Virus record (IMG/VR): IMGVR_UViG_2671181134_000016
Reading direction: 5' to 3' (one strand)
Length of the DNA: 40,220 bases
DNA from: a virus
Taxonomy: Duplodnaviria; Heunggongvirae; Uroviricota; Caudoviricetes
How positions within the stretch are numbered: the stretch's first letter is position 1; every line of letters begins with the position of its first letter. The notes beneath the pieces were generated by a model. The model was not told the origin of the DNA. It did no database searches and worked only from the letters and a program-made list of their open reading frames with translations. Below are positions 11,177 to 16,143 of the stretch, one piece after another. Made by a program: the position numbers and the translations under genes.

Positions 11177-11193
11177 TTTTGTGGAGAAGGTTG

Positions 11194-11544
11194 ATGCGTG
11201 ATATGTATGAAGTATTGGACCGCTGGGGAGCATGGGCTGCAGCAGATAACAGTGGTGTGGACTGGCAGCCTGTTGCTGCAGGGTTTAAAGGTTTACTACC
11301 TCATGGAAAGAAAACACGCCAACAATGCGATGATGATGAAGGAATCATGATTGACAGCTGTGTTGCGCGATTGCGGAAATATAAGCCAGAAGAATATGAA
11401 CTGATCATTGCTCACTTTGTTATCGGTATTTCACTCCGTTCAATAGCAAAGAAACGGAAATGCTCTGACGGGTCAATCAGAAAACAACTTCAAGCAGCAA
11501 TAGGAGTGATTGAAGGTATTTTGTTGATTATTAAGCCCCTGTAG
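11194..11544 (+). CDS. Q: Late-gene antiterminator Q (phage 82 / QuuD type)
   Basis: MRDMYEVLDRWGAWAA...FKGLLP... closely resembles remembered E. coli QuuD (MRDIQQVLERWGAWAA...); GGAGAAGG Shine-Dalgarno. Confidence 0.85.
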   Translation: MRDMYEVLDRWGAWAAADNSGVDWQPVAAGFKGLLPHGKKTRQQCDDDEGIMIDSCVARLRKYKPEEYELIIAHFVIGISLRSIAKKRKCSDGSIRKQLQAAIGVIEGILLIIKPL

Positions 11545-11550
11545 GGCTTA
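11532..11550. terminator. Hairpin at the convergent junction of Q and the reverse cassette (putative bidirectional terminator)
   Basis: TAAGCCC-ctgta-GGGCTTA, overlapping both stop codons; no clean T-run. Confidence 0.4.
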
Positions 11551-12132
11551 ATAATTCATATGAATTCTGTTTCCGAGATAATATAATCCAAAGAAAGTTG
11601 ATACTAAGAGTTGCCAAACGAGGAAAGTAAATACAACAGTATAAACCATTAAAACAATACTGTTTTGATAGACATTGATTAATGGTGAAAATATAGCATT
11701 AAGTATTATTATAACAATGCTTAATGCTGTTAAAAAAGAGAATAGCATGCAAAGAAATAAGCGTCTGGTCAGAACCTCCTCTGAATTTACTACTTTTCCA
11801 TTTTCTTTTGTTACTTTTATTTCAATAGAGGCATTTCTTTCATTGCTAATCAATGGTAAATCAATCTCAGCTCTATTGAAAGTTGCTATGGCGGCCAGAG
11901 CGGCAATATAAAACCCTGGTAGGTTAGAGATAAATGAAACGATTGATTTAATGAAACCATTGTCATCAAATAAATCTTTGACAGGGATTTTTAATAGAAT
12001 GAAAAGTACTGCTGTGATAGAAGTAAGTAGAATTGGTGCTACCCAATCATATGCAGCTTTGCCGCTAATACCTTTAATAAAAAGATATCCAAACGGCTTG
12101 CCTAGATGAGAGAAAACTGAAAGTATTGGCAT
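11548..12132 (-). CDS. Cassette gene C: 4-TM integral membrane protein of unknown family
   Basis: 194 aa with four hydrophobic spans; GAGG before ATG at 12132; AT-rich; last gene of a three-gene operon. Confidence 0.7.
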   Translation of the reverse strand: MPILSVFSHLGKPFGYLFIKGISGKAAYDWVAPILLTSITAVLFILLKIPVKDLFDDNGFIKSIVSFISNLPGFYIAALAAIATFNRAEIDLPLISNERNASIEIKVTKENGKVVNSEEVLTRRLFLCMLFSFLTALSIVIIILNAIFSPLINVYQNSIVLMVYTVVFTFLVWQLLVSTFFGLYYLGNRIHMNY

Positions 12133-12139
12133 AATAACC

Positions 12140-12559
12140 TCACATCAAATCTATCATTTTCACAACAAACTCTAGTTCAATTTTAACATATGAATCCTTC
12201 AGGCGCGAATTAAAGTTATCGATAATGCTTTTCTTAATAAATGTTTTTTCTAAATTATTAAGATTGATGTTTGAGGTTTTGAAATCAACCTGCCTTGGTT
12301 TATTTGTTTCAGGATCTTGGAATTTAACCTTTAATTTATCATAACCACCATTCATTTTTTTATTGAAATGAGATGCTACATTTTTAATCCATCCAATAAC
12401 ATTGTCACCATGATTTGGAAGTAATTTTAATGTACTTTCAGTCGGAATGTAAGGTGAATTAACATCAGGAGCATTAATTGTTCCGAATTGATCCTTGACT
12501 AATATGACATCTGATAATCCTTTTTGGCTTATTTTATTAAAAAGCTCCTTGTCTAACAT
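12140..12559 (-). CDS. Cassette gene B: soluble protein of unknown family
   Basis: 139 aa; ATG overlaps stop of gene A (ATGTTAG), indicating translational coupling. Confidence 0.65.
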   Translation of the reverse strand: MLDKELFNKISQKGLSDVILVKDQFGTINAPDVNSPYIPTESTLKLLPNHGDNVIGWIKNVASHFNKKMNGGYDKLKVKFQDPETNKPRQVDFKTSNINLNNLEKTFIKKSIIDNFNSRLKDSYVKIELEFVVKMIDLM

Positions 12560-13161
12560 TCCTGTAAATTCAAATATTGGTTTGTATCGTATTTTACTTC
12601 TTTTTTTGATGTTGCAGAAATAACGTTAGTTGGATGTTTTGCGGTAAATAAGTCTTCATTGTCTTTCGCCACTTCAAAGAGAATTTTGTCTAAAAAACTA
12701 TTTAACCGGGCCGTAGATACACCTGGGGTAGATGTACAAATCATATCATAGGTTCTTTTATTTCCATTTAATGATATGACAACATAGGTAGAAACTTCAT
12801 AGCCTTCACCTTGTTCATATTTTGGTTGGATTTCAACGCGTTCATTAGTATTTGTATTTTTTACAACGGTAGTACTTCCATTTTTATCAACACTATTAAT
12901 AAGAAGGACAATATGCGTGGGTGAGTTATCTGGAAGTAAAGGATAAAGTTGTACATCTTGGAGAGTAACTACAATATTCCCAGAATCATATGAATGAACG
13001 AGTCCCTTTTGTTTAACAATCAATGGGGCAAGCATGTACATTTCCGGAACAGGACATATACACTGGGCTTTTACCTCTTGTGTTGCCTTGGTTCTAAACT
13101 TTGTGTCAATGGTCAGACTATGATGAGTAACGAGTCTTTCGCTAGCATTTAATTTTGCCAT
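12553..13161 (-). CDS. Cassette gene A: soluble beta-rich protein of unknown family
   Basis: 202 aa; ATG at 13161; AT-rich; first gene of the reverse-oriented operon inserted between Q and the late operon. Confidence 0.65.
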   Translation of the reverse strand: MAKLNASERLVTHHSLTIDTKFRTKATQEVKAQCICPVPEMYMLAPLIVKQKGLVHSYDSGNIVVTLQDVQLYPLLPDNSPTHIVLLINSVDKNGSTTVVKNTNTNERVEIQPKYEQGEGYEVSTYVVISLNGNKRTYDMICTSTPGVSTARLNSFLDKILFEVAKDNEDLFTAKHPTNVISATSKKEVKYDTNQYLNLQEC

Positions 13162-13189
13162 GAAATCATCCGATTATGATTTTTCGATT

Positions 13190-13300
13190 TATTTGTTAAT
13201 CTTACAAAAACGCTAACGCGTACGCAAAAATTATTGTATCGTGTTAAGAGTGGTTACTTCGCCACACAGCTTAAACCCGCCGTCGAGCGGGTTTTGTCGT
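13190..13300 (+). promoter_or_regulatory. Probable late promoter (pR'-like) region with Q-utilisation site and short terminated leader
   Basis: AT-rich region upstream of the holin ending in the hairpin ACCCGC-cgtcga-GCGGGT + TTTT at 13274-13300; exact -35/-10 not resolved. Confidence 0.4.
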
Positions 13301-13446: not shown

Positions 13447-13773
13447 ATGCCTCATAACCCAAATACCTGGCTGGAGTTGTTCCAGAGCTGGTGGCGTGGA
13501 GACACACCGCTGGGCGCAGTGATTATGTCGATCGTTATGGCTGGCTTGCGCATTGCCTATTTTGGCGGTGGTGGTGGCTGGAAACGAAAAACGCTCGAGA
13601 TTTTGCTCTGTGGTGCTCTGACGCTGACTTTTGCATCCGCTCTTGAGTATGTCGGATGGCCTAAATCTCTTTCTGTTGCCATTGGTGGCGGCGTTGGGCT
13701 GATCGGGGTCGATGCTATTCGTGGGGCTGCAATGAGAGTAATCGGTAATAAGTTTGGTGGCTCTAAGGAGTAA
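13447..13773 (+). CDS. Holin, lambda S-like class I (3 TM)
   Basis: Three hydrophobic segments, charged C-terminal tail; immediately upstream of the endolysin. Confidence 0.8.
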   Translation: MPHNPNTWLELFQSWWRGDTPLGAVIMSIVMAGLRIAYFGGGGGWKRKTLEILLCGALTLTFASALEYVGWPKSLSVAIGGGVGLIGVDAIRGAAMRVIGNKFGGSKE

Positions 13774-14947: not shown

Positions 14948-15289
14948 TTAGTCCTGCATGAATCTCTCTCTTTCTATTTCATAACCGTCGCTTTCTTCTC
15001 GGCAGTTTTGACATAAGAGATCTCCATAGTAACCTTGTAAGTTATAAGCTTCTTCTAGCTCATAGCCAGAGATAACCTTAGAGCAACCGTTATGGTGCCC
15101 GCCTGGATTTCTAACACCACCACATGGGTGAGAAAGGAAAGGTTGCAATACCCTCTTTTGCGGTGCAGAAAGACTATCAAATCCTTTGGTTACAGCTAAC
15201 TTAGCGATTCCACTAACTTTACCATCTTCATGATAAAATGCGTCACAATTAAGCATTGTATTGAGTAATGATTCTACTTCGTCAGACAC
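14948..15289 (-). CDS. Cys/His-rich hypothetical protein (moron at the bor position); start uncertain (GTG 15289 with AGAGAGG, or ATG 15256)
   Basis: C..HPCGG..HHNGC..CQNC pattern suggests a zinc-binding fold; reverse orientation downstream of lysis genes. Confidence 0.5.
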   Translation of the reverse strand: MSDEVESLLNTMLNCDAFYHEDGKVSGIAKLAVTKGFDSLSAPQKRVLQPFLSHPCGGVRNPGGHHNGCSKVISGYELEEAYNLQGYYGDLLCQNCREESDGYEIERERFMQD

Positions 15290-15461
15290 TGGAAATACCT
15301 CTCTATAAACAAAAGTAATAGCTATCACACAAAGCTTAAGCACATAAACTAAAATAAATCAAAATGTTAATGATAATCGTATAGTAAAAAGAAAAGGCTG
15401 AAGTAGCCGAGAGGTAGCAATAGCAGGTTAAGGCAGGCACTTAGTAAGTGCCTGCCACTGG

Positions 15462-15671
15462 TTAGTAACAAGATGGTGTATTGTTGAATCTGTAAGAGAG
15501 GCGAACTATTTCAGAAACCCCTTTTCGGTTTAACAATCGCCTTATATTCTCTGGATTTTTGTAAATAAAAGGATTCCTTAGATCCTCGAACACTCCTCCT
15601 GCAATGCAAATCAAATATTCCAGATCTTCTTGTGTTGGTAAGGTTGAAAGTTTGTTATTTGCATTATTCAT
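15462..15671 (-). CDS. Small hypothetical protein (69 aa)
   Basis: ATG at 15671 with strong AGGAG Shine-Dalgarno; perfect palindrome GGCAGGCACTTA/TAAGTGCCTGCC just downstream. Confidence 0.5.
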   Translation of the reverse strand: MNNANNKLSTLPTQEDLEYLICIAGGVFEDLRNPFIYKNPENIRRLLNRKGVSEIVRLSYRFNNTPSCY

Positions 15672-15792
15672 TTTACAGCTCCTAATTATTGCCGTTATTG
15701 GCGTGGTGCATGATAGGAAGTTTGTGATTTTTAACGGTAGCTGGGGCAAGCTTTTTGTGAATCCTATGCACATCATCAAATCGAGTTTTTTA

Positions 15793-16143
15793 ATGCCACA
15801 ACGAACCCCAAAAGCCTGCCGTGTTCGCGGCTGCCGCCATACCACTACTGACCCGTCAGGCTACTGCGAAAGCCACAAAAGCGAAGGCTGGAAGCAATAC
15901 AAGCCAGGCCAGTCCCGACACCAGCGCGGTTATGGTTCGAAATGGGATGTTATCCGTGAACGTGTGCTCAAGCGTGACAAAGGCCTGTGTCAGTTGTGCC
16001 TGCGTGTCGGTGTGGTGCGTGAGGCGAAAACCGTTGACCACATCATCCCTAAAGCGCATGGCGGCACTGATGCAGACTGCAATCTGCAGAGCCTGTGCTG
16101 GCCGTGTCATAAGGCGAAGACGGCCCGTGAACGGCTAAAGTGA
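15793..16143 (+). CDS. HNH endonuclease (terminase-associated)
   Basis: Cys/His motifs CRVRGCRHTT...CESH ... DHIIPKAHGGTDADCNLQSLCWPCHKAKT. Confidence 0.85.
   Translation: MPQRTPKACRVRGCRHTTTDPSGYCESHKSEGWKQYKPGQSRHQRGYGSKWDVIRERVLKRDKGLCQLCLRVGVVREAKTVDHIIPKAHGGTDADCNLQSLCWPCHKAKTARERLK

Follow-up and report, generated by a model that had tools for sequence, protein, structure and literature searches.

In phage lambda the rexA and rexB genes are co-transcribed with cI and encode proteins of 279 and 144 amino acids (aa), respectively. A two-gene 'RexAB-type' defence has since been described in the cryptic prophage P1 of Pseudomonas putida (PP_5643/PP_5644, here RexABpp), where resistance to two phages requires both genes and is lost without rexA (Rosendahl et al., Sci Rep 2026, PMC12894663). 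In that study RexBpp was a four-transmembrane (TM) protein and RexApp bound DNA, overproduction of RexApp caused RexBpp-dependent growth arrest and membrane permeabilisation, and suppressor mutations were obtained at W25, F35, L55, T103, S145, G153 and Y181 of RexBpp. Rex-like pairs of a soluble RexA-like protein and a membrane protein also provide prophage-mediated defence in the actinophages Sbash (gp30/gp31), CarolAnn (gp44/gp43) and Butters (gp30/gp31), which have Actinobacteria as hosts and, in the case of Butters, the roles of the two proteins reversed. A further candidate, PDC-M53, is a pair of PADLOC families defined from cassettes embedded in BREX, DISARM and type I restriction-modification (RM) loci, and is listed as untested (Payne et al., bioRxiv 10.1101/2024.01.29.577857). 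Here we compare with these systems a reverse-oriented cassette in a 40 220-nucleotide stretch of tailed-phage DNA (Caudoviricetes; IMG/VR record IMGVR_UViG_2671181134_000016; 'the window'), which lies at positions 11548-13161 on the minus strand, next to the Q antiterminator gene of a lambdoid prophage.

We conclude, with a probability of roughly 0.8, that this locus is a two-gene RexAB-type abortive-infection or phage-exclusion moron of an SfII-like lambdoid prophage, and that the copy in the window is most likely inactive. A sequence-only reading of the same DNA had described three minus-strand open reading frames (ORFs), A, B and C, and these were recovered with exactly the same boundaries. 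The cassette and the two sites that bear on its reading frame are:

12553-13161, minus strand: ORF A, 202 aa.
12140-12559, minus strand: ORF B, 139 aa.
11548-12132, minus strand: ORF C, 194 aa; intact rexB-like gene for a putative four-TM membrane effector (PDC-M53B family, phrog_8257).
12140-13161, minus strand: rexA-like gene for a putative sensor (PDC-M53A family, phrog_9879), 340 codons in its intact form, here present as ORF A plus ORF B.
12592-12595, minus strand: run of four A residues, site of a one-base deletion (five A residues in SfII and in intact E. coli copies), from the pairwise DNA alignment with SfII.
12601-12607, minus strand: run of seven A residues (tcA AAA AAA) that matches the pattern of a -1 slippery heptamer, read directly from the sequence; the deletion lies 5 nt downstream.

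ORFs A and B together represent a single 340-aa gene, A its N-terminal and B its C-terminal part. In a family profile scan, A covers positions 1-191 and B positions 202-340 of phrog_9879 (340 positions), while in PDC-M53A (320 positions) the two cover 4-165 and 225-318. Both match the PADLOC model PDLC04696 (PDC-M53A), A with an E-value of 7e-14 and B with 1.3e-13, and jointly they cover the model; the statement that A and B match no family was thus mistaken. Shigella phage SfII carries the same region at 99.7% DNA identity, with just two genes annotated in it, SfII_50 (340 aa, intact) and SfII_49 (194 aa). Pairwise alignment shows a sole relevant difference, in which SfII has GAAGTAAAAATACG and the window has GAAGTAAAATACG: one A is missing from a run of five (12592-12595). 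The deletion breaks the sensor gene after codon 191, at the linker that joins two predicted domains (the boundary being taken from model secondary structure), and accounts for the division into A and B. The real unit is therefore two genes, the sensor gene and C, of which the first is frameshifted in the window.

That A, B and C are instead separate, translationally coupled proteins of an undescribed three-component system, as the sequence-only reading had it, is highly improbable. Three ORFs are indeed present, the string ATGTTAG does stand at the A/B junction, a few E. coli assemblies annotate the split ORFs as separate proteins, and a PHROG family exists for the C-terminal piece (phrog_30139). 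The overlap is nonetheless a by-product of the one-base frameshift, which splits the sensor gene and creates the appearance of coupling: the start codon of B corresponds to Met202, inside the intact protein, and has no properly spaced Shine-Dalgarno sequence, and A and B fall on consecutive stretches of a single profile. Full-length homologues are undivided. All those recovered measure 340-342 aa, intact length is seen in eight of the nine complete E. coli genomes bearing the locus, and across more than 40 species the homologues are single genes of 315-345 aa. Split forms are rare in public protein collections, where the exact 202-aa piece is found on one contig and the 139-aa piece on seven, compared with more than 250 contigs for intact 340-aa forms. 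The family is, moreover, already catalogued and has one validated member. The spacing given for the second junction, with B ending 8 bp before the GAGG of C, was also imprecise: GAGG overlaps the TGA of B, and the ATG of C lies 7 nt past the stop. Homologues extend from Enterobacterales to Alphaproteobacteria, from which A, B and C are judged to be real genes or parts of genes and not chance ORFs. A single homopolymer indel can, in short, mimic a three-gene operon with 'translational coupling'.

The slippery run offers a possible way round the lesion. A simulated -1 slip at the seven-A run restores the frame, and the resulting 340-aa product departs from the intact sequence solely by EV to RS. 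The window allele may, speculatively, yield some full-length sensor by this route, although such slippage could at best be rare and leaky.

Both proteins of the cassette belong to the PDC-M53 families. In addition to the joint match of A and B to PDC-M53A, C matches PDLC04699 (PDC-M53B) with an E-value of 1.8e-54 over positions 2-187 of 188, and the sensor gene and C are neighbours on one strand, with 7 nt from the stop of the former to the ATG of the latter. The window cassette departs from PDC-M53 as catalogued in being a moron of a lambdoid prophage, and its sensor gene is not intact (the 1-nt deletion at 12592-12595). The enterobacterial clade to which it belongs lies outside the five M53A sub-models of PADLOC and matches them weakly.

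A connection between PDC-M53 and RexABpp emerged by way of a Pseudomonas locus. Neither PADLOC nor PDC is mentioned in the RexABpp paper, whose authors obtained nothing informative from BLAST, and HHpred for PP_5643 gave the only reported profile link to lambda RexA (PMC12894663). Our comparison with PP_5643/PP_5644 used primer-derived termini, numbered residues and protein size. The published primers translate to MHRTATFV... for PP_5643 and to MLIGQLANP...LYYLGYKLQE* for PP_5644. One locus retrieved by means of the C-family alignment, from Pseudomonas sp. 286, encodes a 330-aa sensor starting MHRTATFVDIK and a 188-aa effector ending GLYYLGYKLQE, in which five of the seven RexBpp suppressor positions match (W25, F35, L55, G153 and Y181). 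The same pair scores over its full length against PDC-M53A (E-value 1.5e-149) and PDC-M53B (4.8e-71). Since the pair fits both the published termini and residues and the PADLOC models, RexABpp appears to belong to the PDC-M53 families; the evidence is indirect but consistent. Window C is 38% identical to the Pseudomonas sp. 286 effector (E-value 6e-33), and through this pair the window cassette can be read as a divergent enterobacterial homologue of PP_5643/PP_5644. The cassette is thus a divergent addition to an already catalogued two-gene family, neither three-gene nor undescribed, since a member of that family has been shown experimentally to defend (PMC12894663). By the same token, the 'RexA/RexB logic' invoked in the sequence-only reading turns out to be close to literal: the sensor protein has fold similarity to RdgC and RexA, and its family includes the validated P. 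putida system.

ORF C encodes a protein with four TM helices, as had been noticed, and in this resembles the membrane partner of RexABpp. Kyte-Doolittle (KD) analysis gives hydrophobic segments at 31-49, 64-82, 125-143 and 159-177, and the AlphaFold model, with a mean confidence score (pLDDT) of 87, consists of four long helices, the second and third of which are separated by a beta-hairpin (102-120). Word-indexed searching returned 682 matches for C, and the identical protein is present on 581 contigs in public protein collections. In E. coli TW10828 (locus L003, 5057-5584) the locus is one base shorter than intact copies and C is annotated with 175 aa in place of 194, which suggests an independent lesion in the effector gene.

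The comparison with lambda reveals differences as well as likenesses. At 340 and 194 aa, the sensor and C are both larger than their lambda counterparts, and C has the extra beta-hairpin between TM2 and TM3 that RexB does not. Unlike lambda rex, which is co-transcribed with cI, the window cassette lies between Q and the late promoter region, and lambda Rex and PDC-M53 are kept as separate families by both PADLOC and Pfam. RdgC is a stand-alone housekeeping protein without a membrane partner, whereas the sensor gene of this family is always paired with a gene for a membrane protein. We considered sequence homology of the sensor with lambda RexA or RdgC and rejected it, as Pfam searches with 74 family members, a profile search of the PDB and hhalign were all negative; the RdgC model PF04381 in particular matched neither A or B nor any of the 74 members. 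Homology of C with RexB was likewise set aside. Collinear motifs (G..IA.L.A..TF in TM2 and F.LY.L at the C-terminus) had pointed to it, but hydrophobicity-preserving block shuffles reach the same score in 32-55% of cases, and although hhalign of C against RexB chose the same TM2 segment, a reversed profile scores equally well.

Several observations weigh against a RexAB-type assignment with loss of function in this copy. The RexA models of Pfam (PF15969) and PADLOC match neither A or B nor any of 74 family members, while lambda RexA itself matches these models with an E-value of 9e-110. Alignment of the A family to a 23-sequence RexA alignment by hhalign gave a probability of 1.3%, and the PDB profile search for the A family revealed no link to RexA or RdgC. 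For the membrane component, the RexB models (PF15968 and PADLOC) had no match among 32 C-family members, with hhalign probabilities of 0.3-1.2%, and a BFVD search returned no significant structural match for C; the top TM-score in that search was with a 165-aa Sbash protein, in a non-significant match. The sensor is only about 20% identical to the Pseudomonas protein, and the pair fall in the same hidden Markov model (HMM) family without a significant pairwise BLAST match. The experimental demonstration of defence concerns RexABpp only, and two-hybrid assays did not show an interaction between the two RexABpp proteins (PMC12894663). The rex genes of lambda and P. putida adjoin a repressor gene and the window pair does not. 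A promoter scan called no consensus promoter, for the cassette or for pR', on either strand of 13162-13300. Finally, the frameshift might be a homopolymer sequencing error and not a real mutation.

The position also differs from that of RexABpp. That system lies downstream of a CI-like repressor, while in the window, SfII, E. coli, Erwinia and Serratia the pair is found between Q and the late region, in the window in reverse orientation; the window sensor gene is also frameshifted, which that of RexABpp is not. Location is a typical, not a strictly defining, feature of a RexAB-type system.

The two genes are tightly linked in other genomes. We scanned one genome per species with the C-family alignment and obtained 47 loci from Gamma-, Beta- and Alphaproteobacteria. 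In 43 of these the C-family gene is immediately preceded, on the same strand, by an A-family gene, with gaps mostly between -4 and +12 nt; of the four exceptions, at least two are at contig edges or are fragments. A full HMMER search grouped the sensor family at 50% identity into 268 clusters, almost all with proteins of 315-335 aa. The C protein is the better conserved of the two and is served by one PADLOC model, as opposed to five sub-models for the fast-diverging sensor. In Vibrio and Halomonas, where the C homologues are more distant, each of them follows a PDC-M53A protein of 330-334 aa.

In Erwinia and Serratia the sensors are 49-58% identical and the 7-nt spacing is kept. The Erwinia billingiae pair again lies between Q and holins, in an apparently intact prophage. 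The same prophage encodes, just past its lysis genes, an Acb2/Tad1-hairpin protein (PF24729, a family of anti-CBASS/Thoeris sponges; locus L010, 7644-7925). In Serratia the pair belongs to a decayed prophage remnant in which a Q fragment is retained and the lysis genes are gone. Five loci (L005-L009, 10001-11615) have the cassette at a fixed chromosomal site, where the remnant consists of the Q fragment, a Mom-like gene and a few small ORFs, an arrangement consistent with selection for the cassette after prophage decay.

Family members were found in prophages and in defence or mobile-element islands. The genes flanking 31 loci include helix-turn-helix (HTH) regulators, of which three contain an S24 peptidase domain (CI/LexA-like repressors), as well as type IIG, III and IV restriction components, DISARM DrmMII, SoFic, ArdC, an IS66 transposase and housekeeping genes. 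This fits a mobile-element or defence-island context, in which the enrichment is not dramatic. In Vibrio coralliilyticus (locus L011, 1138-4686) the PDC-M53 pair is a few kb from an OmpA-domain gene, a gene for a 550-aa protein and an HNH/DUF8245 gene, a layout that we take to resemble type II Zorya. A second pair in this Vibrio island (330 and 197 aa) was tried as a further candidate and discarded, being unrelated and devoid of TM segments.

A working model can be drawn by analogy with RexABpp and lambda Rex. Gene structure, frameshift, family membership, linkage, fold similarity and membrane topology are observed here, whereas DNA binding, effector activation, defence, lysogenic expression and loss of function are inferred. 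The 340-aa cytoplasmic protein, probably dimeric and, judging by its fold, a non-specific DNA binder, would detect a feature of an infecting phage, possibly its replication or recombination intermediates. On infection by another phage it would activate the 194-aa four-helix inner-membrane protein, the presumed effector, so that the membrane is compromised, growth stops and the infection is aborted. Expression in the lysogen is presumed to come from the cassette's own promoter, because the cassette faces away from the late operon and converges on Q. Rightward transcription early in the phage's own lytic cycle could work against this expression.

An alternative is that the pair mainly serves the prophage's own life cycle, in the lysis-lysogeny switch or in timing or assisting lysis. 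Lambda RexA stabilises the lytic state without involvement of RexB, the cassette is a direct neighbour of the late promoter region and lysis genes, and family members often adjoin CI-like repressors. We nevertheless regard this as unlikely, given that the pair is also present in a Vibrio island, in a P2-like prophage beside an RM system and in the Serratia remnant that has lost its lysis genes. The family was first detected embedded in BREX, DISARM and RM loci, the P. putida member defends from a cryptic prophage, and the orientation of the cassette opposes that of the late operon.

The state of this copy is a separate matter. Because loss of rexApp abolishes defence in P. putida, the window copy, with its frameshifted sensor gene, is probably inactive for defence. 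It is rather probable that what remains is a decaying, functionless remnant, that is, a pseudogene and an orphan membrane gene. Lesions are seen elsewhere too: the sensor gene is cut to about 208 aa in Silvimonas (locus L060, 7053-7679) and in a Bathymodiolus symbiont (locus L073, 141-770), so that disruption of the sensor gene recurs in unrelated lineages, and to these can be added the short C of TW10828 and the partner gene cut by an insertion sequence (IS) in the SfIV cassette described below. Set against complete decay, C is intact and identical on 581 contigs, the 99.7% DNA identity to intact SfII means that any decay is very recent or that the indel is a sequencing error, and the seven-A run could permit a leaky full-length product. 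This alternative describes the state of one copy and not the nature of the element, and is compatible with a RexAB-type exclusion moron as our favoured explanation.

The surroundings of the cassette define a slot, whose borders and neighbours in the window are:

11179-11544, plus strand: Q antiterminator gene, left border of the slot (PF06530, E-value 8.7e-45).
11533-11549, no strand assigned: short inverted repeat AAGCCC / loop / GGGCTT, covering the convergent stop codons of Q and C.
13203-13268, no strand assigned: conserved element of about 65 bp, right border of the slot, from cross-phage conservation.
13273-13294, plus strand: terminator-like hairpin followed by a T-run, candidate tR', from a terminator scan.
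13447-13773, plus strand: lambda-type holin S, first late gene (PF05106, E-value 6.6e-25).

The block that contains A, B and C is AT-rich, as first noted, with a guanine-plus-cytosine (GC) fraction of 0.29-0.37 compared with 0.47-0.59 in the flanks. With Q on one side and, on the other, the holin gene followed by endolysin and spanins, the description of an AT-rich moron, reversed in orientation and placed between Q and the control region of the late genes, is supported. Q stands to the left of the cassette in SfII, E. coli, Erwinia and Serratia alike. The inverted repeat at 11533-11549 was not called by the terminator scan, and as a terminator it is only a possibility. Rfam gave no match in the whole window.

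The 65-bp element is kept beside unrelated cassettes in prophages of E. coli, Shigella, Erwinia and Serratia; it was seen in the window, Erwinia, Serratia, a Stx2a (Shiga toxin) phage and phage vB_EcoS-569R4. It is 97.8% identical to Stx2a phages, and both the window and the Stx2a phage have a hairpin after it. From this conservation the element probably represents the late promoter/qut region cognate to this type of Q, which makes the proposed placement 'between Q and the late promoter' plausible; the promoter part of that claim is inferred from the element, as the scan called no consensus promoter. On the cassette strand the element has a TACAAT/TATAAT-like hexamer, and it may also hold the cassette's own promoter. 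Reading the cassette upstream region by eye gave no convincing -35/-10 hexamers.

The equivalent of window 11545-13200 holds other reverse-oriented pairs in further lambdoid phages that share this Q type, each a gene for a soluble protein of 286-356 aa with one for a multi-TM protein of about 170-180 aa. Stx2a phages (Stx2a_1447; locus L014, 900-2463) have a reverse-oriented pair encoding a soluble protein of 343 aa and a protein of 179 aa with four TM segments (phrog_3482 and phrog_16807). SfIV has a homologue of this pair (locus L080, 1998-3420), the second gene of which is interrupted by an IS transposase, and vB_EcoS-569R4 (locus L015, 992-2387) has a reverse pair of 286 aa (phrog_2802) and 182 aa (three or four TM segments). 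No PADLOC or Pfam family matched the Stx2a, SfIV or 569R4 cassettes, and the alternative cassettes showed no significant homology with the A family or RexA (best hhalign probability 10%, E-value 0.003). In Acinetobacter phage phi1_092021 (locus L079, 2501-4008), a homologue of the Stx2a 343-aa protein (32% identity) is paired with a 167-aa multi-TM protein directly downstream of a CI-like repressor, the position of rexA-rexB after cI in lambda, and is annotated 'DefenseFinder protein'.

The region between PF06530-type Q and the late-promoter element might, tentatively, be a dedicated exchange slot for reverse-oriented Rex-like exclusion cassettes, each pairing a soluble sensor (about 290-350 aa) with a multi-TM effector (about 170-190 aa). 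Besides PDC-M53, the slot accommodates two or more other cassette families, the phrog_3482 and phrog_16807 pair and the phrog_2802 pair; if the proposal were true, these would be new Rex-analogous systems, some of them in Shiga-toxin phages.

A second AT-rich stretch in the window (14948-15845; GC 0.35-0.41), with spanin genes on one side and HNH/terminase genes on the other, has the look of a further moron slot. Two ORFs lie in it on the minus strand, one of 131 aa (phrog_12178) and one of 127 aa (phrog_22590), and neither has an assigned function; in relatives the slot is occupied by an S1 peptidase gene in two E. coli prophages and by IS911 in SfII.

These results give a function-level annotation to the SfII hypothetical proteins orf49 and orf50 and to related genes of E. 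coli, Salmonella and Shigella prophages, the C protein alone being present on several hundred public contigs. They also link PDC-M53, an untested candidate, to the validated RexABpp and to the RdgC/RexA fold. We did not find this connection in the searchable literature, which does not mention PDC-M53 and in which no text ties it to Rex. If the link is true, RexAB-type systems would not be five isolated cases but one family that ranges over Gamma-, Beta- and Alphaproteobacteria and comprises, at 50% identity, 268 clusters of sensors. The slot observation points to where further membrane-effector exclusion systems may be sought, Stx phages included.

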